The notes under the pieces were generated by a model, which did not search any database, was not told the DNA's origin, and was given only the letters and a program-made list of their open reading frames with translations. Positions 17,921 through 53,420 of a stretch of DNA of 64,000 bases are shown piece by piece (position 1 is the stretch's first letter; each line of letters opens with the position of its first letter). Made by a program: the position numbers and the translations under genes. Origin of the DNA: Candidatus Omnitrophota bacterium (GTDB lineage Bacteria > Omnitrophota > Gorgyraeia > VGKH01); assembly GCA_022703055.1 (NCBI GenBank), contig JAKLEP010000002.1:22247-86246 (forward strand). Direction: 5' to 3'.

Positions 17921-19312
17921 TTACCTTTCTGTCTTCAGAATCTCGATTAGGGTATCGACAACTTCAGGATGGAATTGGCTTCCTCTATTGATGTTTAGCT
18001 GTTTCAAGGAGTCTTCTCTGGTTAAGGCCGGCCTGTAGGCGCGCGGAGAAGTCATGGCATCATATGCGTCGGCCACCGAAACAATCGCCGTAAAAATATT
18101 GATATTTTCTCCGTTGATTTTATCGGGATAACCGCCTCCGTCATAACGCTCATGATGACCTCGGACAATTGCCAGCATCTCTTCGGATATCGAAACCGGC
18201 TTTATGATATCTTCGCCGATAATGGGATGCTTTTGAATTGTGTCCCATTCTTCAGGAGTGAGTTTTCCCTCCTTGTTTAAAATACTTTCTTTGATTCCAA
18301 TCTTGCCAATATCATGCAGAAGCGCCGCCTCTTTCAGCAAATCAATCTTATCCTTGGGAAATCCCATTTTTATAGCTATTTTCTCGGCGAAATCGGCGAC
18401 TCTTTCCGAGTGGCCTCGAGTATATTGATCTTTTGCCTCCAAGATTCTTACCAAAGACTGGGCAATGCGATAAAAATAATCGAGAAGTTTCTTCCTTACA
18501 TCAAATAAATTTTCTGACATCTGGTTAAAAGACCGCGCAAGCTCTCCTATCTCATCGCTTGTCCTCACCCTGACGCGGTATCTAAGATCCCCCTCGGAAA
18601 TATGATAAGTTCCTTCTACCAACTCATTTATCGGATTAGTGATACTTTTAGAGATTAACATCCCAAGAAATATTGAAATGAATACCCCAAGAAGAAGAAC
18701 AAGAAAACCCCTCTGTTTAATCCCTTTCTGAAAGGCATAAACATCATCCGCTGCGACATCTACGCCTAACATCGCTATGGCTTTTCCGGTCTTATCGCGG
18801 ATAGGCGCATATCCGGAAAGAAAAACTCCCCATTGGTCGGTCTCAAGTTTCGTGTCTGCAGCCGGGCCGAAGAAAGCCTTGGCTATTTCGGTATATCTAG
18901 TAGCATTAAACTTATCGCCAGGATACGAAGTAATGCCATTGACTAACGGCTCAGGATCAACCACAAACTGCCATATACCCTCTTTATCGGTCTTGGCCAT
19001 TGTATAAATATACTTTATCGGAGGGTTAACTCTCTTGATAGCTCTTAGTTTTTCCGCGATTGTCTTATAGGCCTGGCTATTGACTCCGTCTTTTGTCATT
19101 GGAACCTGCGCCAATGTATCAGCGTCGACAAATAAGGCAGCGGTCTGGGCTATTACCTTTAATTTATCTCTTAGCTGGTTAAACTGCGCATCGTAGGAGA
19201 ATTTGTAAATAAGGTAATTGCTTAAAGTGGCGATAAAAAATAAGGATAGGACTAAAAGCAGGATAACTTTCAGCTGAAAACTTCTCCCGAATGGAATATT
19301 AATTGTTCTCAT
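17921..19312 (-). CDS. Membrane sensor HD-GYP phosphodiesterase (periplasmic sensor domain, HAMP, HD-GYP)
   Basis: 463 aa; TM, periplasmic Cache-like region, TM, HAMP (EIGELARSFNQMSENL), then HD-GYP motifs HDIGKIGI and HHERYDGGGYPD. Confidence 0.8.
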   Translation of the reverse strand: MRTINIPFGRSFQLKVILLLVLSLFFIATLSNYLIYKFSYDAQFNQLRDKLKVIAQTAALFVDADTLAQVPMTKDGVNSQAYKTIAEKLRAIKRVNPPIKYIYTMAKTDKEGIWQFVVDPEPLVNGITSYPGDKFNATRYTEIAKAFFGPAADTKLETDQWGVFLSGYAPIRDKTGKAIAMLGVDVAADDVYAFQKGIKQRGFLVLLLGVFISIFLGMLISKSITNPINELVEGTYHISEGDLRYRVRVRTSDEIGELARSFNQMSENLFDVRKKLLDYFYRIAQSLVRILEAKDQYTRGHSERVADFAEKIAIKMGFPKDKIDLLKEAALLHDIGKIGIKESILNKEGKLTPEEWDTIQKHPIIGEDIIKPVSISEEMLAIVRGHHERYDGGGYPDKINGENINIFTAIVSVADAYDAMTSPRAYRPALTREDSLKQLNINRGSQFHPEVVDTLIEILKTER

Positions 19313-19383
19313 AGGCCAATCTCTAAACTTGTAAGGACTATATTTTACCGAAGTTTAGTAGTTTTGGCAATATAAAAATAGTC

Positions 19384-19420
19384 AGGGGGCGTCCGCCAAT
19401 GCTGCATTGGCGGACGCCCC
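19384..19420 (-). terminator. Intrinsic terminator after spoVG
   Basis: GGGGGCGTCCGCCAATGC…GCATTGGCGGACGCCCCC near-perfect GC-rich stem, followed on the minus strand by TGACTATTTTTATATTG. Confidence 0.55.
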
Positions 19421-19448
19421 CAACTGTCCTACGGGTTGTTAAGCTTAA

Positions 19449-19712
19449 CTATTCGTTTTTATACGCTTCCAGGACTATACTGGAAATCTCTTGCTGTATT
19501 TCTTTAGAGACAAGACTCACGGTATCGTACCAGCGTTTGTCTTTGCCCTGGTCTTTGGGCATACTCACAAACAATCCTTTCTTGCCTTCGATAATCCTCA
19601 AGCCTTTTATCAAAAGCTCGTCGTTAACCAGGATATCTGCGAATGCCTTGACCGGACCGTCGGTCTCTAATTTGTACATCCTGCCGATTTTAAAATTCAA
19701 TCCATTACTCAT
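19449..19712 (-). CDS. spoVG: Septation protein SpoVG
   Basis: 87 aa; …VKAFADILVNDELLIKGLRIIEGKKGLFVSMP… GGAGG RBS. Confidence 0.85.
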   Translation of the reverse strand: MSNGLNFKIGRMYKLETDGPVKAFADILVNDELLIKGLRIIEGKKGLFVSMPKDQGKDKRWYDTVSLVSKEIQQEISSIVLEAYKNE

Positions 19713-19723
19713 CTATGCCTCCT

Positions 19724-20149
19724 TTAAACTAAAAAGTAAAAAGAAAAAAGTAAAAACCAAAAGGCAAAAGTCAAAAGTCTTCTCCGATTCTCTTTCAGGG
19801 TTAAGATGCTCGAAGCTAAAATATTCGATAATTCTGTGGTCTCATTTAAAAGCTCTGTTATATTCTCGAACGGACCTTCGATAGAATCCCTAATTAACTC
19901 TAGCCAAAATTTACTCTCATTAGCTGATTTGAGAGCGTGGCGATAAAAATTAGAGAAATCTTTTTTAGAAGCAGAAACTTGAGCTTCTATAATATTAGCA
20001 CCAACAGAAGTTGCTGAACGTAAAAGCTGCTGAGCCATCACTTGCGATATATAGTCTTTAGGGATGCTTCTAAGAAACTTGATTATATCTGCGGAGTAAA
20101 GATAGCTTCGTTTTCTTAAATTATAAACCTTATTCTTTTTCTCTTCCAT
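19724..20149 (-). CDS. Four-helix-bundle protein (TIGR02436 / 23S rRNA intervening-sequence protein family), copy A
   Basis: …QLLRSATSVGANIIEAQVSASKKDFSNFYRHALKSANESKFWLELI… family signature. The C-terminal approximately 19 aa (NRRRLLTFAFWFLLFSFYFLV) are read out of the flanking AAAAGTAAAAAG repeat. Confidence 0.8.
   Translation of the reverse strand: MEEKKNKVYNLRKRSYLYSADIIKFLRSIPKDYISQVMAQQLLRSATSVGANIIEAQVSASKKDFSNFYRHALKSANESKFWLELIRDSIEGPFENITELLNETTELSNILASSILTLKENRRRLLTFAFWFLLFSFYFLV
19730..19779. repeat. Left terminal inverted repeat of four-helix-bundle cassette A
   Basis: AAAAAGTAAAAAGAAAAAAGTAAAAACCAAAAGGCAAAAGTCAAAAGTC is the imperfect reverse complement of 20150-20200. Confidence 0.6.
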
Positions 20150-20200
20150 TTTTACTTTTTACTTTAACTTTTTTCTTTTTCGTTTTTACTTCTTACTTTT
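20150..20200. repeat. Right terminal inverted repeat of four-helix-bundle cassette A
   Basis: TTTTTACTTTTTACTTTAACTTTTTTCTTTTTCGTTTTTACTTCTTACTTTT; begins 1 nt after the ATG of copy A. Confidence 0.6.
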
Positions 20201-20227
20201 ATTCAATTCAGCGCCATAAGCAAAAAA

Positions 20228-20641
20228 CTATTCAGCCTTTGCTTGTTGTTTTAAAACGCACTTGCCACAAGGCGTCAGGCCCTTAGCTTCGGCCTCAGTA
20301 ACTGACATGCCTGCAGTTTCTTTATTTTTGATTAACGAACATCCTGGCTGGTGATATTTCTTGCCGTTTTTAGTGGCATAGACCATGCCTTCGGTTTTTT
20401 CCTGCTTTACTTGTTTATCGATTGCTTCTTCTTCGCCAAAGCATCTCCCACAAGGCTCCAAGCCCTTGGCCTTGGCATTTTCGATATCGATTGCCTGCGT
20501 ATCTCTATTTTTAATAAACCGGCAATCCTGTTTGTGATATTTTGTACCTTGCTTAGTAACATAGACATCCTCAGCAAAAGCTGCGGAGGCTGTTGTCAAA
20601 AATACTAAACACAAAATCAATGATGCTAATTTCTTAAGCAT
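20228..20641 (-). CDS. Secreted protein with two tandem His/Cys repeats (putative metal-binding)
   Basis: Signal peptide MLKKLASLILCLVFLTTASAAFA. Two ~45-aa repeats, YVTKQGTKYHKQDCRFIKNRDTQAIDIENAKAKGLEPCGRC and YATKNGKKYHQPGCSLIKNKETAGMSVTEAEAKGLTPCGKC. Confidence 0.5.
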   Translation of the reverse strand: MLKKLASLILCLVFLTTASAAFAEDVYVTKQGTKYHKQDCRFIKNRDTQAIDIENAKAKGLEPCGRCFGEEEAIDKQVKQEKTEGMVYATKNGKKYHQPGCSLIKNKETAGMSVTEAEAKGLTPCGKCVLKQQAKAE

Positions 20642-20681
20642 TTCCCCTTTCCTCCTTTCAAAAGCTGCTCGTCCATTCTGC

Positions 20682-22316
20682 TTATGGCTGCTGAATAACT
20701 TTATTATTTAAACAGCGGGATAAATATCCGCCGGTCAAAGCATCAATTGAGGCCGTCAGCTCTTCTAATCTCAAGGTCTCATCCAGCCTTTCGCTTGCCT
20801 CTTCAGGAGGTGAGATTAGAAGCTCTGTCTGAAGCCGACGGCGCTCAAAGTACAATCGTGTTACTTCATCTAAAATTGACTCCCTTAGTTCAACCATTAA
20901 TTTAGAACGGGAATCTATAGATGTCTGGTCCGGATTCCAAATCAGCTCACCCACATCCCAGCTTAATGACAATCCCCAATCCCTCGGACCAACAAATGCC
21001 CTTTCGTAGCTAGAAGATAGAGACGTTGCCACAGTCTTATCGTAATCTAAACTTACTGACGGCATAAGAGCAGCAAGCTGCGCGCGCCTGCGCCAGCTTT
21101 TTATTTTCCGTGGATCAACCTCTGCGTATCTTATCGCCTGTTTCTGGATTTCCTGAATAGAGGGCTCGTCCTTAAATACTTCTTGAGTATTTTTTTGCTC
21201 GTCTCGTTTCATTGCAGGTAAATCCCGGGACGAGCCCCTAAACACTCCTTCATCAGTTGCAGCCCAAAGATTCCTAGAGGAGTCCGTGGCTAGGAAATTA
21301 ATATTATTAGCGGTCATTCCCTTATAAAACTGTTGCCATTTACCACCGTTAAATTCAAAAACACCTTTTTCTGTACCAACAACTAAATTATTATTATCTA
21401 GAAATTGAATACATTTTATATTCTGACTTAACAATCCTCCTGAATTTAATCTCTGCCAGGATTCGCCGTCATCTTGGGAATAAAACAAACCTTCATCTGA
21501 GCTAAAATAAATATTACGAGAGTTCTTGTGATCGATTTTAATATCGGTTATGCGTGATGTTCCTTTTGATTCTTCGGCTGCATAATCGCTATCGCCATTA
21601 TTATTTTCCGGGCTCTCTTGGCCTGTTATGGAATATAATTTATCTTGTGAATCTAAATCCGAGCTTAAAACATATACGCCTTCGATAGTGGCGAGAAAAA
21701 TCTGCTCTGCGCCTGCGGCCATAGCGATAATTTCAATGGTGCCAAGCTTCCCTGATAATCTATCCCAAGTCTTGGCATTATCCCTCGTAAAAAATAATCC
21801 TTCTTTGGTGCCAAGAAGGATTATATCTTTAAGAATCAAAACCGTTTTGCAATAACGCTGCATTTCGTTTTTACCGCGAAAAATATTCTGCCAGCTTTTC
21901 CCCTCATTTCGGCTGATGAATAATCCATCGGCGGTCGCAGCGAATATATCCTGCGGGCAAGATCTATCTTGCGCAAGGTAATTAACTCCTCCAGATTTTG
22001 GAATATTTAGAATCTTCTTATAATATTTCCCCTGGTCATTTGAAACATAAAGAGCGCGGTCAGTACCGACAAAAAATTGATTCCTATCCTCAAAATCAAA
22101 TAATATACATTTAACATTCTTTTCCCTTAAGCCATCGGAAGAATCCTGCCATAAAATATTACTATCGGAACGGGTTATTACTAATAAACTTAAAATAAAA
22201 ACAAAGATATAGACAATGCCAGAAAGCAACCTATTATGTTTGAAATTTCGAATTGCAAACTTAAAAGTCAAAAGGAAAAAGTAAAAAGCACAAGTTAAAA
22301 TTAAAAAGTTTTTCAT
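20682..22316 (-). CDS. Membrane-anchored beta-propeller protein (BNR/Asp-box or Reg_prop-like repeats) with an unknown C-terminal domain
   Basis: 544 aa; repeated …G(K/E)(S/T)W(Q/D)…L… motifs (GKSWQNI, AKTWDRL, GESWQRL, LWAATDEGVF). The annotated N-terminus is encoded by the inverted-repeat DNA of cassette B, so the real start is probably internal. Confidence 0.55.
   Translation of the reverse strand: MKNFLILTCAFYFFLLTFKFAIRNFKHNRLLSGIVYIFVFILSLLVITRSDSNILWQDSSDGLREKNVKCILFDFEDRNQFFVGTDRALYVSNDQGKYYKKILNIPKSGGVNYLAQDRSCPQDIFAATADGLFISRNEGKSWQNIFRGKNEMQRYCKTVLILKDIILLGTKEGLFFTRDNAKTWDRLSGKLGTIEIIAMAAGAEQIFLATIEGVYVLSSDLDSQDKLYSITGQESPENNNGDSDYAAEESKGTSRITDIKIDHKNSRNIYFSSDEGLFYSQDDGESWQRLNSGGLLSQNIKCIQFLDNNNLVVGTEKGVFEFNGGKWQQFYKGMTANNINFLATDSSRNLWAATDEGVFRGSSRDLPAMKRDEQKNTQEVFKDEPSIQEIQKQAIRYAEVDPRKIKSWRRRAQLAALMPSVSLDYDKTVATSLSSSYERAFVGPRDWGLSLSWDVGELIWNPDQTSIDSRSKLMVELRESILDEVTRLYFERRRLQTELLISPPEEASERLDETLRLEELTASIDALTGGYLSRCLNNKVIQQP
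22263..22308. repeat. Left terminal inverted repeat of four-helix-bundle cassette B
   Basis: AAAGTCAAAAGGAAAAAGTAAAAAGCACAAGTTAAAATTAAAAAG is near-identical to the reverse complement of 22682-22731. Confidence 0.65.
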
Positions 22317-22681
22317 CTCTTTCCTTTCAGACTCAAAATGCTTGCAGCGAGAATATTGGATAATTCAATTGTTTCATCAGAGATTATTTTAGTTTTATCA
22401 AAAGGGACTCTATGAGAATCTAAAAGCAAAGAAAGCCAGAATTTGCTTTCATTTGCAGATTTTAATGAATGGCTATAAAAATTAGTAAAATCTTTTTTGG
22501 AACTTGAAGCTTGAGCTTCAATGATATTGGCACCTATTGATGTTGCGGAACGAAGAAGTTGCCTGCCAATTATTATTGAGATGTAGTCTTTGGGTAGATT
22601 TTCGATAAAATTTATAATATCAAGCGCATATAGGTAAGTGCGCTTTCTTAAATCATAAATTTTATGTCTTGGCTCTTCCAT
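22313..22681 (-). CDS. Four-helix-bundle protein (TIGR02436 family), copy B
   Basis: 122 aa; …RQLLRSATSIGANIIEAQASSSKKDFTNFYSHSLKSANESKFWLSLL…; paralog of copy A. Confidence 0.8.
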   Translation of the reverse strand: MEEPRHKIYDLRKRTYLYALDIINFIENLPKDYISIIIGRQLLRSATSIGANIIEAQASSSKKDFTNFYSHSLKSANESKFWLSLLLDSHRVPFDKTKIISDETIELSNILAASILSLKGKR

Positions 22682-22731
22682 TTTAACTTTTAACTTGTGC
22701 TTTTGCCTTTTTACTTCTCATTTTTGACTTT
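22682..22731. repeat. Right terminal inverted repeat of four-helix-bundle cassette B
   Basis: TTTTAACTTTTAACTTGTGCTTTTGCCTTTTTACTTCTCATTTTTGACTTT; starts 1 nt after the start codon of copy B. Confidence 0.65.
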
Positions 22732-22743
22732 AGGATACTTTTA

Positions 22744-22902
22744 TTAATTTTCCTCATAATATTCCTCCATTAGCTTGGCAAGGTCATAGATTATAAAATC
22801 GGGGACGTAAAGATTAGGATACAGAAGTATTCTGTGTTTTAAGGCTTGAAATGTTCTCTCGGTTTTTTTAATTCTCAGGTGGGTTGTTTTGTCCTCTTGC
22901 AT
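22744..22902 (-). CDS. Small hypothetical ORF (52 aa), not in ORF track
   Basis: MQEDKTTHLRIKKTERTFQALKHRILLYPNLYVPDFIIYDLAKLMEEYYEEN with a GGGAGAAAGG RBS-like stretch about 12 nt upstream. Weak support. Confidence 0.3.
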   Translation of the reverse strand: MQEDKTTHLRIKKTERTFQALKHRILLYPNLYVPDFIIYDLAKLMEEYYEEN

Positions 22903-23010
22903 TAACTTGCTGCCTTTCTCCCGTGGACGCTTGGAAGTATAGCATGTATTTGATTATTTGTCAAGGTTGATTTGCGTAAAAGTTAAATTATTATTCAGTG
23001 TAATTATTAT

Positions 23011-23033
23011 AACTTGTTAGTAATTAACAAGTT
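23011..23033. promoter_or_regulatory. Candidate operator: 9-bp perfect inverted repeat AACTTGTTA-gtaat-TAACAAGTT upstream of the XRE/cupin regulator
   Basis: Perfect palindrome about 50 nt upstream of a TTGACA(23083-23088)-N17-TAATCT(23106-23111) promoter-like element and the AGGAGG RBS of the regulator. Confidence 0.4.
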
Positions 23034-23143
23034 GATAAAATTGACCAAAAAATGAAATATTTTTTGTTTATACAATTTAGACTTGACAATTCATCAATGC
23101 TATGTTAATCTTTAGATTAGAAAAACACTTCAGGAGGAATAAG

Positions 23144-23695
23144 ATGAAAATCGGAGACAGGATTCGAGAATTAAGAAAATCGCGCAAGATGACGCTGGTG
23201 GAATTATCACAAAATAGCGGCGTGCAGCTTGCAACTTTGAGCCGTATTGAGAACCTCAAGATGACCGGCACCCTCGATTCCCATATCAACATCGCCAAGG
23301 CGCTGGGAGTTAATTTAAGCGAGCTATACAAAGACATCGGAGTTGAAGAAAAAACTATAGATGTCCAATCGCAGGACTCAAGAAGCGAAGTATTCTTGCA
23401 CAGCGATAAAGCAGCTTATGAGATGCTCACCAACAAGGTACTTGAGAAGAAAATGATGCCTATACTTTTAAAGATTGAACCTCAGGGCAAGACCCAGCAA
23501 GAACAAAATAATCTCGGCACGGAAAAATTTATTTTCTGCCTGGAAGGAAAAATCGAAGCAGTGATAGATAATAAAAGCTCAATACTGAGCAAAAATGCCA
23601 CGCTCTATTTTGATGCATCCCTCCCCCACTATTTTAAAAACTTAGGAAAGACCAAGGCGCTGGCGATATGCGTGATTACGCCACCGGCATTGTAA
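23144..23695 (+). CDS. XRE-family HTH transcriptional regulator with C-terminal cupin domain
   Basis: Start chosen at MKIGDRIRELRKSRKMTLVELSQNSGVQLATLSRIEN (HTH_3), preceded by AGGAGG. The C-terminal half has a cupin-like beta pattern. Confidence 0.8.
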   Translation: MKIGDRIRELRKSRKMTLVELSQNSGVQLATLSRIENLKMTGTLDSHINIAKALGVNLSELYKDIGVEEKTIDVQSQDSRSEVFLHSDKAAYEMLTNKVLEKKMMPILLKIEPQGKTQQEQNNLGTEKFIFCLEGKIEAVIDNKSSILSKNATLYFDASLPHYFKNLGKTKALAICVITPPAL

Positions 23696-23714
23696 TAGGA
23701 GGTCAAATGACGAC

Positions 23715-24077
23715 CGAACTTATGGAGTTTGAAAAACGACATAAGTTCGTAGTCGGAATTTGACCCAGCACTAATTTTATGAATATATATTGGATTTATA
23801 TCTTAAAGAACAAAAATACTGGAGAGCCTTATTACGGATATACAAATAACTTAGACAGGCGTTTAAAAGAACATGATATTGATAATAAATGGAAATTTAT
23901 TGGTTGTGAAGGTTATGTCTCCGAATTAGATGCTAGGGAAAGAGAAAGAAAATTAAAACATTATGGTCAAGCACGAACCCATCTTAAGAACCGGCTTAGA
24001 AAATCATTCCAATAGTAAAATTAGTGCTGGGTTCAATTCGCCCAAGCGACTTATGTTCACTTTGTTCCATAAGTCGC
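23715..24077 (+). mobile_element. Hairpin-bracketed GIY-YIG mini-cassette (putative selfish/homing-endonuclease-like insertion)
   Basis: Layout: left hairpin CGAACTTATG-(15 nt)-CATAAGTTCG at 23715-23749; a 16-18-bp perfect inverted repeat ACCCAGCACTAATTTT / AAAATTAGTGCTGGGT abutting the start (23763-23778) and stop (24017-24032) of the GIY-YIG ORF; right hairpin GCGACTTATG-(12 nt)-CATAAGTCGC at 24046-24077. Confidence 0.45.
23779..24015 (+). CDS. Small GIY-YIG nuclease-domain protein (UPF0213/YhbQ-like)
   Basis: 78 aa; IYWIYILKNKNTGEPYYGYTNNLDRRLKEH matches GIY-x10-YIG…R…E. Confidence 0.75.
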   Translation: MNIYWIYILKNKNTGEPYYGYTNNLDRRLKEHDIDNKWKFIGCEGYVSELDARERERKLKHYGQARTHLKNRLRKSFQ

Positions 24078-24098
24078 GGGCTCATTGAAGGAGGAAAA

Positions 24099-24455
24099 AT
24101 GCCTAAATATAAGATTTTGATCTGTGATGATGAACTGGGTATCAGAGAATCACTAAAATTAATTTTAGAGAAGGATTATGAGATCATTGAAGCTACTAAC
24201 GGCAAAGATTGCCTGGAGAATTTAAAAAACAATCCCGTAGATTTAATCTTAATGGATATCAAAATGCCCAAGGCCAGCGGACTGGATATCCTAAAAGAAA
24301 TCAAATCAATTAATCCCGCCATAAAAGTAATCATGATCACAGGCTACAAGTCGGTCGAAACAGCGACAGAAGCCATCCGCGCCGGAGCTAGCGATTACAT
24401 CGTCAAGCCATTTTCGTCTAAGGATGTCTTGGAAGCAATTCGGAAAATCCTCTAA
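24099..24455 (+). CDS. Stand-alone response-regulator receiver domain (CheY-like)
   Basis: Start at MPKYKILICDDELG after a GAAGGAGG RBS. Phospho-acceptor context LILMDIKMP and the T/K motifs. Confidence 0.8.
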   Translation: MPKYKILICDDELGIRESLKLILEKDYEIIEATNGKDCLENLKNNPVDLILMDIKMPKASGLDILKEIKSINPAIKVIMITGYKSVETATEAIRAGASDYIVKPFSSKDVLEAIRKIL

Positions 24456-24485
24456 AACCAGCCTCTAGGATTTAGGGTTTAGCAC

Positions 24486-24504
24486 TTAGGGTATAGGGTA
24501 TAGC
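24486..24504. repeat. Left inverted repeat of four-helix-bundle cassette C
   Basis: TTAGGGTATAGGGTATAGC directly before the ATG; reverse complement of CCACCCTATACCCT at 24876-24890. Confidence 0.5.
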
Positions 24505-24891
24505 ATGAAACTACAATCGTATAAAGACCTCATTGTTTGGCAAAAATCCATAGAGCTGGTTATAGAAATTTATAATCTTACCAGATTATTCCCTAAAAGC
24601 GAAGTTTACGGATTGGTTTCTCAAATGAGGCGAGCTGCCATAGCTATTCCTTCTAATATCGCTGAAGGATATCGCAGAAAACACATAAAAGAATATATCC
24701 AGTTCCTCTACGTAGCAAATGGCTCAGCTTCTGAACTTGAAACACAAATTGATATCGCTAGAAAATTAGAAGAAACAATAGATTTGGATTATTCGAAGTG
24801 CGATAATTTAATTGCGGAAGTCTTAAAGATGTTGAACGTGCTGATTGCGAAACTTGAAACTAAACGCTACCCCCTCCACCCTATACCCTGA
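24505..24891 (+). CDS. Four-helix-bundle protein (TIGR02436 family), copy C
   Basis: 128 aa; …VSQMRRAAIAIPSNIAEGYRRKHIKEYIQFLYVANGSASELETQIDIARKLE… family signature. The stop lies 1 nt from the stop of the convergent HD-GYP gene. Confidence 0.8.
   Translation: MKLQSYKDLIVWQKSIELVIEIYNLTRLFPKSEVYGLVSQMRRAAIAIPSNIAEGYRRKHIKEYIQFLYVANGSASELETQIDIARKLEETIDLDYSKCDNLIAEVLKMLNVLIAKLETKRYPLHPIP
24876..24890. repeat. Right inverted repeat of four-helix-bundle cassette C
   Basis: CCACCCTATACCCTG lies inside the last codons of copy C and pairs with 24486-24504. Confidence 0.5.
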
Positions 24892-24892
24892 A

Positions 24893-26938
24893 TTAACCAA
24901 ACTTCTTCTTCAACTCATCCATTACTTTTTTCAGCACACCATCATTATATAACTCGATAAAGGCATCGGCGACTACCGGATCAAATTGAATCTTACGGAA
25001 CTTTTTGATTTCGTTCATCGCTTCTTCTATTGATAAGCCTTTTCGGTAGGGCCTGTCGGTAGTCATGGCATCAAAGGCATCAGCCACGCGGATAATCCTG
25101 GCAAAAATGTGGATTGCATCTCCCTTTTGCTTATCAGGATAACCAGAGCCGTCGTAATTTTCATGATGATGCACCACACCCTGGATAATGTCTTCCCCGA
25201 ACCATTCCTTTAAGGGGCCGAGGATTTCGATACCGCGGGTGGGATGCTCCTTAATCTTGGCAAATTCCTCATCGTTAAGCGCGGCCGGCTTCAAAAGAAT
25301 ATTATCCGAGATTCCGACTTTTCCCAAATCATGCAGCTGGGCGGTCCAGTGAAGCGCGCTGATGGAGTTGGGTATGGAATGGATCAAGCGCTCCAGTTTA
25401 TTTCCTAACAACATTGAATATTGCGACACTCTTTCGGTGTGGCCGCGGGTGTAATGATCGCGGGCTTCCAAAGTCTCCAGCAATGATTTCTGCGAGGAGA
25501 CAATCAAACGGATTTTTTCGTTCTTCAATAATAATCCGGCGATGGCGCGGCCGGTCTGATTGGCCAAAGTCTGGAAGGCCTGGAGGTCCTGAGCAGTGTA
25601 GATTTCGTTAGTGATTTTATTACCCAGGTTCATAATACCAACCATCTCATCTTCGCAGAAACTGGGAACGCAGATTTCCACGCCCAAGATGGCCATTTCG
25701 CTTTCCACGGATTCCAGGAATTTTCTTTCGTGCGTAGTAAGATCTTTATTCTGCAGGTCATGCATAATCTGGCCATAGACTGCCGGCTTCTTCTCGTCTT
25801 TTAGATAGGCGACCAACGGGCTGTGGATTGAAAGCAACAATCCCAGCTCTAATTTGGGACGGTCTTTTTTGCGATAAACACAGGACATAAGCGCATAGGC
25901 ATTTTTCTGGTCATTCAGGATAAAAACAGCGGTGTGATCCAAACGCGTAAATGATGACACGTCTCTTACGATAAACGTCGCCATTTCTCTAACGTCTCTT
26001 GCCCTCGCCGTCCTCTCCGCCTCTTTCTCCAGCATCGGCCTGTAGGCGAATTTCTTGGAAAGGTCAGATTCATTCATACGAAGAATAAATTTTATAAATC
26101 TAAATAATGCAAATGCTATCAGAGCTGAAAGCAAAACAGGTACAGTTAACCAAGCTGGACCTAATTTCGGGGAAAGAATTGGCTGAATATAAGAAAGAGC
26201 AATATAAAGCAAGGCTACTGGAATTATAGCACCTATGGAAATGAAAGTTGTCTTCTTGACTAAAATTTCAATATCCATAAGGTGATGACGAACTATGCTA
26301 TAACTAATTATAGCTATATAAATTGCTCCAAATAAATAACCAAACGGATAAATTGCTATTCCATAATTAGGAAAAAAATCTACGGACGCGGAGCTATAAA
26401 TAGTAAATGCTAATAATACATATTTTATTTGGGTTCGTTCCGGAGGTGTAAGTTTCTTGTTTTTAAATAATAAAAATGATGCCAAGAGAATGCATGCGTA
26501 GCTTACCGAACCAATAAAAAATATTAAGAAAACTGGATGCAGAAAACCTGCTATTGGATAATACCCCCAGAAATATAATCTAAAATCTTTTACAACATAA
26601 CTGGTTCCCCATATTAAAAAACTAAATAATATAGAAAACAAATAAAATAATGAAATAATCTTTTGTAGACTTTTTATTTTTAGAACCTCTATGGTACAAT
26701 GTAATCCAGCAACACATATAAAAGCAATAGCTGTGTACCCAATTTTTAACCAGAAAGCAGCTATAGTTTTATCTGTTTGACGATAAGCGATCCCATATGC
26801 GAATAACCAAATACATGTAACTAAACTTAAAAAGAAAAAAACACGGTTAGTGACGTGTTTAGAATTCCTAGATAAAATAAAGAATCCAAGTATCAATAGC
26901 GCTAATGAGATAATAATTTGTGGAAACGAATAATACAT
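24893..26938 (-). CDS. Polytopic membrane sensor with GAF and HD-GYP phosphodiesterase domains
   Basis: 681 aa; at least 7 N-terminal TM helices, a GAF-like middle region, then HD-GYP motifs HDLGKVGISD and HHHENYDGSGYPD. Confidence 0.75.
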   Translation of the reverse strand: MYYSFPQIIISLALLILGFFILSRNSKHVTNRVFFFLSLVTCIWLFAYGIAYRQTDKTIAAFWLKIGYTAIAFICVAGLHCTIEVLKIKSLQKIISLFYLFSILFSFLIWGTSYVVKDFRLYFWGYYPIAGFLHPVFLIFFIGSVSYACILLASFLLFKNKKLTPPERTQIKYVLLAFTIYSSASVDFFPNYGIAIYPFGYLFGAIYIAIISYSIVRHHLMDIEILVKKTTFISIGAIIPVALLYIALSYIQPILSPKLGPAWLTVPVLLSALIAFALFRFIKFILRMNESDLSKKFAYRPMLEKEAERTARARDVREMATFIVRDVSSFTRLDHTAVFILNDQKNAYALMSCVYRKKDRPKLELGLLLSIHSPLVAYLKDEKKPAVYGQIMHDLQNKDLTTHERKFLESVESEMAILGVEICVPSFCEDEMVGIMNLGNKITNEIYTAQDLQAFQTLANQTGRAIAGLLLKNEKIRLIVSSQKSLLETLEARDHYTRGHTERVSQYSMLLGNKLERLIHSIPNSISALHWTAQLHDLGKVGISDNILLKPAALNDEEFAKIKEHPTRGIEILGPLKEWFGEDIIQGVVHHHENYDGSGYPDKQKGDAIHIFARIIRVADAFDAMTTDRPYRKGLSIEEAMNEIKKFRKIQFDPVVADAFIELYNDGVLKKVMDELKKKFG

Positions 26939-29585: not shown

Positions 29586-30815
29586 CTACTTTTGTACTTC
29601 CACAATTTTTTTAAAAACTAAGCACGCATTGTTTCCCCCGAACGCGTATGAATTATTGAAAGCTATATTTACCTCTGCTTTGCGAGAATGATTTGGCACA
29701 CAATCTACATCACACTCCGGATCCGGAGTCTGGTAATTTATCGTCGGGGCAATTACGCCTTCTTTTATCGTCAGACAGCAGGAAATCGCCTCAATTGCCG
29801 ATGCTGCGCCCATAGTGTGTCCAAGCATTGATTTGATTGAACTTATAGGAATCTCTTTATATTTTGCGCCAAAAACTTTCTTAATTGCCGAACATTCGGT
29901 TTTATCATTCTGCACGGTTCCGGTTCCGTGCGCGCTGATATAATCTACATCCTCAATTTTGATACCTGCCTCTTTTATCCCTCGCCTCATACATTCCACG
30001 ATTCCTTCTTCTTTGGGCGCGGTCATATGATAGGCATCACAGGATAAACCATAGCCAAGAATCTCGGCATAAATTGTCGCTTTTCTTTTTAAGGCACTGT
30101 CTAATGTTTCCAATAATAGCATTCCGGCGCCTTCGCCGACCAGCATTCCTTCGCGGTTTAAATCAAACGGACGGCAGACTTCCGGGGCCATGGCATAAAG
30201 CCGGCTAAAACCGACCAAATTAACCCGGGAAAAAGCATCCACACCGCCTGCCAGCATAACATCTGCTTTGCCAGATCTGATTAGATCAAAGGCATAGCCG
30301 ATAGAATAATTTCCTGCAGAACAGGCATTAGCAAACATGAAACTATCAACTTTTAATTGCAGTTCATTGGCGAGGTTTCCGACGATATTATTAGTGGGAA
30401 ATAAAATTACGGTTTTATGGCCAATATCTTTTTCGCCCTTGTCTACCCAAAGCTTATCCATCTCTTCTAATATCTGAGCCTCGCCCATAGTAGTTCCAAG
30501 GCAAACGCCCATTTTTGCTTTGTCTATCTTTTTGATATTTAATCCTGCGTCTTCTAAAGACAGGCGAGCAGCCGCGAGCGCCATCTGTGAGGCGCGGCCC
30601 ATGTGTTTGAGCTTTCTTTTATCGATAAACTCCTCTGACTTGAAATTCTTGACCTCGCCGCCAAAGTGTCGTTCGTAGGCAGATGTATCAAAGGCTTCAA
30701 TCTTGCTTATTCCTGATTTACCGGCGATAAGGTTTCGCCAGAAATCAGCTTTGCCAATGCCGATCGAGCTTACCACGCCTAGACCAGTTATAACAACTCT
30801 TCGATTATTCTTCAT
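29586..30815 (-). CDS. fabF: 3-oxoacyl-ACP synthase II
   Basis: 409 aa; RRVVITGLGVVSSIG…, active-site ACSAG, HGTGT, NSYAFGGNNA motifs. Confidence 0.9.
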   Translation of the reverse strand: MKNNRRVVITGLGVVSSIGIGKADFWRNLIAGKSGISKIEAFDTSAYERHFGGEVKNFKSEEFIDKRKLKHMGRASQMALAAARLSLEDAGLNIKKIDKAKMGVCLGTTMGEAQILEEMDKLWVDKGEKDIGHKTVILFPTNNIVGNLANELQLKVDSFMFANACSAGNYSIGYAFDLIRSGKADVMLAGGVDAFSRVNLVGFSRLYAMAPEVCRPFDLNREGMLVGEGAGMLLLETLDSALKRKATIYAEILGYGLSCDAYHMTAPKEEGIVECMRRGIKEAGIKIEDVDYISAHGTGTVQNDKTECSAIKKVFGAKYKEIPISSIKSMLGHTMGAASAIEAISCCLTIKEGVIAPTINYQTPDPECDVDCVPNHSRKAEVNIAFNNSYAFGGNNACLVFKKIVEVQK

Positions 30816-31024
30816 TCTTTTCTGCGATCACTCTTCTGTGAATTATACCTGACCTTCTCGGAAATCCACTGATCAATCATCTTACGATGAAAGCGCCAGT
30901 CCGAGCCGAATTTAAAGGCTGGGATCTTACCTTCCCTGGCATATTTATAAATCGTCGCCGGATGGACATCCAGATACGCCGCCACGTCCCTTAAATCCAT
31001 TATCTCTTTACTTTTATTAGCCAT
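30812..31024 (-). CDS. Excisionase-family (HTH_17, MerR-superfamily) DNA-binding protein
   Basis: 70 aa; LRDVAAYLDVHPATIYKYAREGKIPAFKFGSDWRFHRKMIDQWI is a typical HTH_17 helix-turn-helix. ATGA overlap with fabF. It occupies the slot where acpP/fabG normally sit. Confidence 0.65.
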   Translation of the reverse strand: MANKSKEIMDLRDVAAYLDVHPATIYKYAREGKIPAFKFGSDWRFHRKMIDQWISEKVRYNSQKSDRRKE

Positions 31025-32110: not shown

Positions 32111-32215
32111 AAATAAGTTATTTCAGTTAATGCAGTTATTTCTGTTAGGTCAGTTCTATTCCTTAACTAACGTAACTGGCTCAACTGACTAAACTGTCCT
32201 AACATTTCTTTATTT

Positions 32216-50284: not shown

Positions 50285-50333
50285 AAAACTAATATTTCAA
50301 ATAACTACTTTGCGAAAAAAGACCTTTAAAAGT

Positions 50334-53308
<2,975 letters not shown>

Positions 53309-53420
53309 CTTGACCACAAATAAAAACCGTCTTTTTCCGCTATATGTAGTTATCAAAGAACCAATCGCAAAGTTACGTGCGAATAAAATTCTTTCTAAAA
53401 GATCTCTTTATGATAATTTC

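Follow-up and report, generated by a model that had tools for sequence, protein, structure and literature searches.

Four-helix-bundle genes enclosed by inverted heptamer arrays: probable mobile hairpin-ORF cassettes in protein-coding operons of Omnitrophota

Results

Three four-helix-bundle genes at one locus

The window analysed here is a stretch of 64,000 nucleotides (nt) from Candidatus Omnitrophota (contig JAKLEP010000002.1), in which three genes for small four-helix-bundle proteins, A, B and C, are each enclosed by inverted repeats. A gene together with its repeat arms is called a cassette, and all cassette coordinates are window positions. The three open reading frames (ORFs) were found where an earlier reading of the bare sequence (the original prediction) had placed them:

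19724-20149, minus strand: gene A, four-helix-bundle protein of 141 amino acid residues (aa), the last 19 of which are encoded by the 3' arm
22313-22681, minus strand: gene B, four-helix-bundle protein of 122 aa
24505-24891, plus strand: gene C, four-helix-bundle protein of 128 aa

The assignment of all three to the four-helix-bundle family was verified by profile searches. A, B and C scored 68.4, 68.9 and 127.3 bits with PF05635 (curated cut-off 33.8) and 81, 78 and 124.9 bits with TIGR02436 (curated cut-off 24), and C reached 139 bits with NF008911. A and B are 65% identical and C is divergent from both. A fourth copy of the gene was not found in the 64-kb window by tblastn. With phmmer, B matched PDB 2RLD (E 1.8e-16) and C matched 2GSC/XCC0516 (E 2.2e-23); each of these entries contains five chains, and the solved homologues are known to be homopentamers (Lin et al. 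2006, as cited in PMC4990558). The AlphaFold model of B (pLDDT 91) shows four helices and was structurally closest to 2RLD (TM 0.78-0.88), followed by 2GSC and then by Avd, a protein of diversity-generating retroelements (DGRs; TM about 0.7). The motif R-x3-S-x3-N-x2-E that is quoted for the family (PMC3936711) lies in helix 2. All four motif residues (R44, S48, N52 and E55) occur without variation throughout the A/B alignment. The C alignment is likewise uniform at R43, N51 and E54; at the serine position, C itself carries an alanine. The cassette proteins are basic, with an isoelectric point (pI) of 8.6-9.5. PADLOC gave zero matches among them, and the sole match in PHROGs was the "Avd" family, for C only.

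The cassette arms are inverted arrays of heptamers

The inverted repeats around A, B and C were present as the original prediction had claimed, and their lengths and complementarity were computed. The arms of A (repeat I2, 19726-19776 and 20149-20199) are 51 nt long and 78% complementary, and those of B (repeat I1, 22257-22307 and 22681-22731) are 51 nt long and 80% complementary. Around C a perfect 12-nt core, AGGGTATAGGGT, lies inside about 19-25 nt, and a stem of 14 base pairs (bp) is formed in the minimum-energy fold. All arms are tandem heptamer arrays, a feature that had not been spelled out in that prediction, with AAAAGTA-type units in A and B and TAGGGTT/TAGGGTA units in C. When the whole window was analysed with TRF, five period-7 arrays were detected, every one of them a cassette arm. 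The 5' array extends to the start codon and the 3' array starts at or inside the end of the ORF, so that A and C carry arm-encoded tails. The parts are listed below, with related loci given by their L numbers:

19726..20196, minus strand: whole cassette A (5' arm, ORF, 3' arm), an insert when compared with the closest related species; sites empty in L089, L090 and L172
20150..20200, minus strand: cassette A 5' arm, heptamer array up to the start codon; TRF period 7, 7.6 copies
19726..19778, minus strand: cassette A 3' arm, complementary to the 5' arm; TRF period 7, 7.7 copies; abuts the spoVG ribosome-binding site
22255..22737, minus strand: whole cassette B, boundaries approximate; insertion point roughly behind codon 4 of the ancestral propeller gene
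22682..22731, minus strand: cassette B 5' arm, heptamer array, arm of I1; TRF period 7 at 22681-22696
22257..22309, minus strand: cassette B 3' arm, arm of I1; TRF period 7 at 22263-22309; holds the ATG of the 544-aa propeller call
22755..22757, minus strand: stranded ancestral start codon of the propeller gene (ATGAGGAAAAT...), upstream of B; aligned with the empty sites of L087, L088 and L172, where the propeller starts ATGAAGAAAA...
24466..24504, plus strand: cassette C 5' arm, TAGGGTT/TAGGGTA array up to the start codon; TRF period 7, 5.4 copies; pairs with 24876-24889 in the minimum-energy fold
24862..24891, plus strand: cassette C 3' arm, within the last codons of gene C, sequence aaacgctaccccctccaccctataccctga; ends 1 nt before the convergent HD-GYP ORF

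The two arms of each cassette were then joined by a short linker, folded as RNA and compared with dinucleotide shuffles. Stems were obtained for all three, with -29.2 kcal/mol (z -3.1) for A, -39.1 kcal/mol (z -5.3) for B and -28.6 kcal/mol (z -2.8) for C, in line with the original prediction. The fold of the whole cassette was significant for B only. The A arms (19726-19778 and 20149-20200) are also complementary to the B arms (22257-22309 and 22681-22731) over 51 nt at 76-78% (I3, I8). A and B are predicted to share a transcript, and its RNA could therefore also pair over a long range in other combinations, with the propeller and p137 genes in the loop. The consensus of the C array (24466-24503), TAGGGTT, is identical to the plant telomere unit TTTAGGG when cyclically permuted, probably by coincidence. 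An E-value-mode search of Rfam with 19300-25300 gave no relevant family.

Cassette ends replace parts of host genes

The cassette ends had been predicted to invade neighbouring genes, and this was observed at both ends of the propeller gene: its start is stranded by B, and its end is replaced in relatives. The annotated N-terminus of the propeller is supplied by B, because the 544-aa call (JGI) begins at an ATG in the B 3' arm, overlapping the B stop (AGATGA); the NCBI call (515 aa) uses a TTG located 29 codons downstream. The arm-encoded N-terminus MK(N/H)FLILTCAFYFFLLTFK is common to the window and L171. B is absent from L087, L088, L089, L090 and L172, and in all genomes without B the propeller begins at ATGAAGAAA..., overlapping the p54 stop. 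With the ancestral start stranded, the gene body requires a new start. In L087, L088, L171 and L172 a cassette was inserted five codons ahead of the propeller stop. There the arm provides a new stop, and the old C-terminal codons (...IQQP-stop) are still readable downstream of the cassette.

For A, the last 19 codons lie in the arm, and this repeat-encoded tail is kept in the orthologues P0047 and P0056. The predicted distance of about 20 nt to the ribosome-binding site of spoVG had to be corrected: AGGAGG follows directly after the A stop, and the distance from stop to ATG is 11 nt. As had been noted, only 1 nt separates the C stop (24891) from the convergent HD-GYP ORF, which ends at 24893.

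Cassettes are gained and lost at a conserved gene block

With the 544-aa propeller protein as anchor, the syntenic block was compared with that of seven related Omnitrophota, whose propeller proteins are 55-75% identical to that of the window. The host gene order HD-GYP, response regulator (RR), HTH-cupin, p52, propeller, p137 and spoVG is conserved, and six junctions of the block are occupied by cassettes in differing combinations:

Window: C (after RR), a GIY-YIG cassette (RR/HTH-cupin), B (p52/propeller) and A (p137/spoVG)
L087: another four-helix-bundle cassette at RR/HTH-cupin, one at propeller/p137, and A; the C site is a 16-nt arm remnant, ttcaggggttatgggt
L088: C, one cassette upstream of HTH-cupin and one at propeller/p137; the A site has both arms and the ORF is gone
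L171: the same as L088, plus B
L172: propeller/p137 only
L173: an A/B-type cassette at the C site, at the same junction (directly after TAAttca), and another at RR/HTH-cupin
L089: zero cassettes
L090: one beside HTH-cupin; a GIY-YIG cassette at yet another site

The A site was compared with that of L172, the closest other species (about 82% nucleotide identity). In blastn, A is a clean 471-nt insert (window 19726-20196), and the alignment of L172 with L001 breaks exactly around L001 12486-12956, which corresponds to window 20196-19726. The insert consists exactly of the arms and the ORF, and it lies in an A-rich spacer just ahead of the ribosome-binding site of spoVG. In the A site of L088 (9540-9660, p137/spoVG spacer) and of L171 the two arms are in direct contact, and the ORF has been deleted between short AAAA microhomologies.

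L171 and L088 are 98.5% identical over 5.7 kb, yet only L171 of the two carries B. The L171 allele has 608 nt replacing 102 nt, and the first ~60 propeller codons are exchanged too. The most plausible cause of this allele swap is homologous recombination with a donor that carried the cassette. Other cassettes are orthologous and have been kept across species, as at the z site (L087, L090) and at sites in Ignavibacteria and Phycisphaerae.

The original prediction had spoken of elements that had colonised several sites. This was supported by the presence and absence at six sites, by differing cassette types at the same junction and by proteins that are 52-71% identical across phyla, and cassette-free sites were found in the related genomes. 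Taken together, the aligned sites show that arms and ORF are gained, lost and replaced as one unit at intergenic sites and gene ends, and that ORF-less hairpins persist as cassette derivatives.

Cassettes lie within host transcripts and are under purifying selection

In the window and the related loci, 125 cassettes had a callable upstream neighbour, and 119 of them point in the same direction as that gene, compared with 109 of 135 control neighbour pairs from the same loci (Fisher p=5e-4). The gaps, with medians of 45 nt on the upstream side and 51 nt on the downstream side, are little longer than the arms themselves. With this orientation and a packing of about 45 nt, there is no room for an own promoter, and the cassettes therefore ride on host transcripts, much as an intervening sequence does within an rRNA precursor. 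C sits behind the RR gene on the same strand. Two further features were found around the operon that contains A and B:

22936..22964, minus strand: promoter-like site upstream of p52 (TTGACA, 17-nt spacer, TATACT, 11/12 matches, TG before the second hexamer)
19385..19421, minus strand: terminator-like hairpin after spoVG (17-pair stem with 13 G-C pairs, then a T run)

Bracketed by these two sites, p52-B-propeller-p137-A-spoVG probably forms one transcript.

Selection was measured as the ratio of non-synonymous to synonymous substitution rates (dN/dS). The orthologous cassette ORFs gave 0.05-0.14 (A 0.14 with L087, B 0.11 with L171, C 0.05 with L088) at a dS of 0.8-1.5, and the flanking host genes gave 0.08-0.18 at a dS of 0.7-1.1. 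The cassettes are not decaying parasites; they are under purifying selection, have diverged together with their hosts and, in most copies, are functional.

The same architecture is found in many phyla

Relatives were returned in large numbers for the two subfamilies, more than 5,000 for one and nearly 8,000 for the other. A scan with one genome per species gave more than 580 A/B-type relatives. The best 80 of these, 52-71% identical, come from Omnitrophota, Planctomycetota, Patescibacteria/Saccharibacteria, Zixibacteria, Ignavibacteria, Dehalococcoidia, Atribacterota, Aminicenantes and a Methanophagales archaeon. For the C type, 80 further loci were taken from a metagenome scan.

The flanks were analysed in 140 relatives from many phyla that have complete flanks. 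Upstream and downstream flanks were complementary beyond shuffles (z>2) in 79% of them, with a median z of 4.8. Significant heptamer periodicity was found in at least one flank in 79% and in both flanks in 48%. The pooled autocorrelation peaked at lags 7, 14 and 21 on both sides, reaching 0.49-0.50 at lag 7, while lags 3-4 and 10 gave about 0.28. The heptamers vary widely by copy (TAGGGTN, TAGCGTT, TAGCTTN, TAGTAGT, TAGGCAT, TCAAGGG, CGGGTCT, GGGACAA, GTACCAA, AAGGGAA), and despite these differences the downstream units of a cassette are always those of its upstream array in reverse complement. Cognate arms pair better than non-cognate arms (p=1e-6).

A census of arrays was made in 918 kb, consisting of the window and the loci, which had been selected because they hold four-helix-bundle genes. 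At most 120 nt from a four-helix-bundle ORF lie 62% of the period-7 arrays, compared with 14.5% of the bases. There are 130 inverted pairs of heptamer arrays, and a four-helix-bundle ORF is enclosed in 101 of them; about 11 lack an ORF and form hairpins whose loops measure 6-32 nt, and the rest belong to two adjacent cassettes with a host gene between them. Cargo of other kinds was considered and rejected, as each apparent case proved to be either such an ORF-less hairpin or a pair formed by the arms of two neighbouring cassettes. No rRNA was found in about 165 related loci. These subfamilies are found outside rRNA as a rule and not as an exception.

The carriers were also examined. A collection of viral contigs yielded 20 relatives of the C type, 35-48% identical, and a single distant one of the A/B type, and phages were rejected as the main carriers on these few, distant matches. 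The plasmid pGM3709_03 of the cultured cyanobacterium Geminocystis (L197) has the same architecture, with AAGGGAA / TTCCCTT arms. Two identical copies are on the plasmids gamma and alpha of Nostoc sp. PCC 7120 (L195, L196), with a CTCTGCC array downstream only and beside insertion sequence (IS) elements. The cyanobacterial plasmid copies are annotated as "four helix bundle protein" or "S23 ribosomal protein".

Some loci have a compound structure. In L087 (8573-9217) an outer AGTAGAG-type pair of arrays encloses an inner AAATTAC-type pair around one ORF, and in L129 and L099 every arm consists of two opposed arrays that form a hairpin of their own. Such nested and compound arrays suggest that one cassette entered the loop or the arms of another. 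In Patescibacteria, or Candidate Phyla Radiation (CPR), the cassettes of L015, L053, L101, L112, L124, L127 and other loci adjoin a recurrent host gene, whose product starts MQFKVPQF.E.EDKIFGP. This gene is sometimes flanked by cassettes on both sides, and the operon appears to be a hotspot there too.

Most C-type heptamers (L088, L091-L170) start with TAG. As 7 is not a multiple of 3, three TAG-bearing units place a stop in every frame. We considered whether the arrays act as insulators that close all three frames with stops. This was the case for 65% of the C-type 5' arms against 26% of shuffles, and weakly for the A/B type (42% against 31%), and the idea was dropped as a general explanation.

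The 23S rRNA gene and other hairpin elements of the window

The original prediction stated that the 23S rRNA gene of the window has no intervening sequence (IVS), and this proved correct. The gene (50332-53315, 2984 nt) matches the full 2925-position bacterial large-subunit model, so that an ORF-bearing insertion is absent from it.

The window contains a second type of hairpin-ORF cassette at 23701-24090 (plus strand), with an ORF at 23779-24015 for a 78-aa GIY-YIG nuclease domain (PF01541, 37.5 bits). It has a 16-bp stem at the start and stop codons and one more hairpin on each side (RNA fold z -5.45), and a match in Rfam was not found. A relative in L090 has a 65%-identical ORF and the same flanks of roughly 80 nt, and lies at a different intergenic site. 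The GIY-YIG site of the window is empty in L088 and is occupied by a four-helix-bundle cassette in L087. In L172 the gene at this site is cut by the contig end, and its arm resembles that of L087.

An ORF-less hairpin was observed at 32116-32196 in the spacer between a fabH-like and a fabD-like gene. It consists of 9-nt units, AGTTAnnnn / nnnnTAACT, and folds with -22.4 kcal/mol (z -3.3); it could be a remnant or relative of periodic-arm cassettes. At 30812-31024 (minus strand) a 70-aa HTH_17/MerR-like (excisionase-type) ORF is wedged between the genes for a fabD-like acyl-transferase and a ketoacyl-synthase, and a fatty-acid synthesis operon is an odd place for such an ORF.

Discussion

Probable mobile cassettes of the IVS kind

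We consider it likely that A, B and C are hairpin-ORF cassettes, embedded in operons and mobile over evolutionary time. In kind they would match the 23S IVSs of Coxiella and Leptospira, but with a location in mRNA operons. By analogy with the rRNA IVSs, the arms would pair in the transcript to a stem of 30-50 bp that loops out the ORF, and RNase III might cut this stem. A motif search for an RNase III gene gave none in the 64-kb window, which is uninformative for a piece of that size. The basic protein, a pentamer in solved homologues, may bind the arms or the arm duplex and serve the maintenance or spread of the element. Arm-encoded stops, starts and hydrophobic tails would patch host genes that were clipped by the insertion, and between close strains the cassettes could spread through homologous recombination of the flanks.

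Several points speak against this interpretation. Profile searches found no recognisable nuclease, recombinase or transposase domain in the A, B and C proteins; of the "autonomous IVS-like mini-elements" of the original prediction, the colonisation of several sites was upheld and the autonomy was not. A clear target-site duplication was not found, as TAAA(A) at the A site is possible and inseparable from the A-rich target. The whole-cassette folds of A (z -1.0) and C (z -0.2) were no better than shuffles, which leaves only the arms-only folds as informative. In the A/B type, arm complementarity comes largely from a shared AAAAN motif, and non-cognate arms pair fairly well. The arm mismatches of 79 elements comprised 102 G·U and 88 A·C (p=0.35), so the signature of an RNA strand is absent and the complementarity may be a property of the DNA. 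Finally, the dS of the cassettes is as large as that of host genes, which indicates that most copies are old and vertically inherited and that movement is rare.

Alternative explanations

It is possible, though on balance doubtful, that the cassettes are DNA-level elements with terminal inverted repeats (TIRs). The heptamer arrays would then be protein-binding ends, or DNA hairpins or cruciforms for excision and integration, and the pentamer a DNA-binding factor. The ORF-less hairpins would resemble miniature inverted-repeat transposable elements (MITEs), and the RNA stem would be incidental. Such an element would fit the lack of a G·U excess over A·C, the existence of ORF-less arm pairs, the nesting of some arrays and the identical junction at which different cassettes begin, as well as the basic proteins and the five chains in the crystals of their homologues. 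The absence of a catalytic domain and of a clear target-site duplication does not fit, and the 95% co-orientation with arrays ending exactly at the start codon would be unexpected unless selection filters the insertions. Moreover, very similar proteins occur with very different heptamers, which argues against a sequence-specific recognition of the ends.

A domesticated host module is unlikely. This would be an operon "punctuation" or RNA-processing device that aids the host, for example by uncoupling or stabilising cistrons, and that is inherited vertically and is not selfish. The six sites are patchily occupied among close relatives, including the 98.5% identical genomes, host gene ends are truncated or replaced, the host contexts are many, and proteins of 52-71% identity occur across unrelated phyla. 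What such a module would explain is the low dN/dS at a dS equal to that of host genes, the orthologous cassettes kept at the same site across species and the strong co-orientation with the upstream gene.

A retro-mobile cassette is highly improbable. In this model the Avd-like protein would be a cofactor for a reverse transcriptase whose gene lies elsewhere, the hairpin RNA would be excised, copied and integrated, and the heptamers would result from repeated copying of a short template. The kinship to Avd in fold and sequence (sub-threshold PF22296 and NF033474, the PHROG "Avd" match of C, and Foldseek matches to 4DWL and 8UB7 at TM about 0.7) points in this direction, and short tandem repeats are typical products of template-slippage polymerases. 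No reverse transcriptase adjoins any cassette in the syntenic block, however, the Avd model scores are far under the cut-offs (22 against 80 bits) and the heptamers differ from copy to copy. The chance that A-rich upstream and T-rich downstream intergenic DNA merely looks complementary is practically negligible: the A and B arms are A/T-rich, non-cognate A/B-type arms pair moderately well and the whole-cassette fold of A is at shuffle level, but the G/C-containing arms of C and its relatives are matched, copy-specific heptamers, period 7 is seen on both sides, the arms belong to the insert and are absent from empty sites, and the arms-only folds beat shuffles.

Significance

The family, its fold and its occurrence in rRNA IVSs were already known; what is added here is the combination of arms and ORF as a mobile operon cassette outside rRNA. 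We found no literature on four-helix-bundle genes outside rRNA as inverted-heptamer-bounded, presence/absence-polymorphic cassettes, in a full-text search that was thin on subscription journals. PF05635/TIGR02436 is a very large family that has solved structures and, to our knowledge, no known function, and the scattered placement of its genes in rRNA genes and cas operons had been without explanation. These contexts are simply accounted for by a gene that moves together with its inverted heptamer arrays, comes and goes within operons, and clips and patches the ends of host genes. This also calls for caution with functions assigned to the family through "guilt by association". Members inside cas operons have been read as functionally associated (PMC3936711).

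Heptamers are the commonest intergenic tandem repeats in prokaryotes, without a clue to their function (Mori et al. NAR 2019, PMC6344855). The 62% share of arrays near four-helix-bundle ORFs in the 918 kb touches this open question of heptamer abundance; as the loci were preselected, the share in whole genomes may differ. We raise as a speculation, and a rather doubtful one, that the pentamer and its inverted heptamer arrays make up a class of self-propagating elements that has escaped recognition, in which the protein would act on periodic hairpin ends (DNA or RNA) by a new mechanism of mobilisation, and that such elements, together with their ORF-less remnants, are the source of a large share of prokaryotic intergenic heptamer arrays. 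Cultivable carriers exist, including cyanobacteria and Bacteroides, in which the ideas on RNA processing and mobility are directly testable.

Comparison with known systems

The Avd protein of DGRs (bAvd of the Bordetella phage BPP-1) shares the four-helix-bundle fold, the basic character, the pentameric solved structures and a detectable sequence relatedness with the cassette proteins. Matches to Avd models were obtained with C only and lie below the cut-offs (NF033474 22.2 bits against 80, PF22296 23.9 bits against 40). In contrast to DGRs, no reverse transcriptase and no template or variable repeat is near the cassettes, and we know of no Avd genes that are flanked by inverted heptamer arrays.

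Like MITEs, small TIR elements and free-standing homing-endonuclease genes, the cassettes are small units within inverted-repeat bounds that lie between or at the ends of conserved genes, are polymorphic in presence and absence, have ORF-less derivatives and can pass from strain to strain by recombination of the flanks. They differ in that the four-helix-bundle cassettes have periodic arms in place of unique terminal sequences, no transposase or nuclease, and no clear target-site duplication. An integron cassette has a single attC at its 3' end and stands in arrays next to an integrase and attI, whereas the cassettes described here have mutually pairing arms at both ends, are scattered singly in operons and have no integrase in their neighbourhood.

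Published intergenic heptamer arrays (TAACTGA and the cyanobacterial short tandemly repeated repetitive sequences, STRR) also have a period of 7, are mostly intergenic with a fixed orientation, are often a few nt from a start codon and are patchy in distribution (PMC4679880, PMC6344855). The TAACTGA-type arrays of Beggiatoaceae, cyanobacteria and Bacteroidetes end beside start codons (PMC4679880), and the arms of L053 are TCAGTTA/TAACTGA-like and resemble them. The published arrays differ in that they were described as direct repeats in front of various genes, with neither an inverted counterpart nor a four-helix-bundle gene between them.

The closest likeness drawn by the original prediction was to the rRNA IVSs, and it extends to the ORF family, the stem and the heptamers. 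In the 23S IVS of Coxiella an inverted-repeat stem is cut by RNase III, the S23p ORF lies in the loop and tandem heptamers precede the ORF start; the heptamer GACAGAT occurs 2-3 times with strain-variable copy number, and the sporadic distribution of IVSs suggests transfer (PMC4990558). In CPR bacteria, 23S_rRNA_IVP ORFs are found alongside GIY-YIG ORFs in non-intron insertions of rRNA genes (PMC11270868). The IVSs of Leptospira and Coxiella and the cassettes of the window have in common a PF05635 ORF in the loop of a terminal-inverted-repeat stem, in sense orientation within a host transcript. The trait that defines an IVS, its location in a 23S or 16S rRNA gene, is not shared: the IVSs occupy helix 25 or 45 of 23S rRNA, whereas the cassettes lie in protein-coding mRNA operons and at gene ends. 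RNase III cleavage has been demonstrated for the IVSs and is presumed for the cassettes. The ORF of the Coxiella IVS is reported to be decaying and probably untranslated, whereas the ORFs studied here are under strong purifying selection, and their arms are longer arrays, with 5-8 units on both sides. In conclusion, on this comparison the classical rRNA IVS becomes one of the landing sites of what would be a general cassette.

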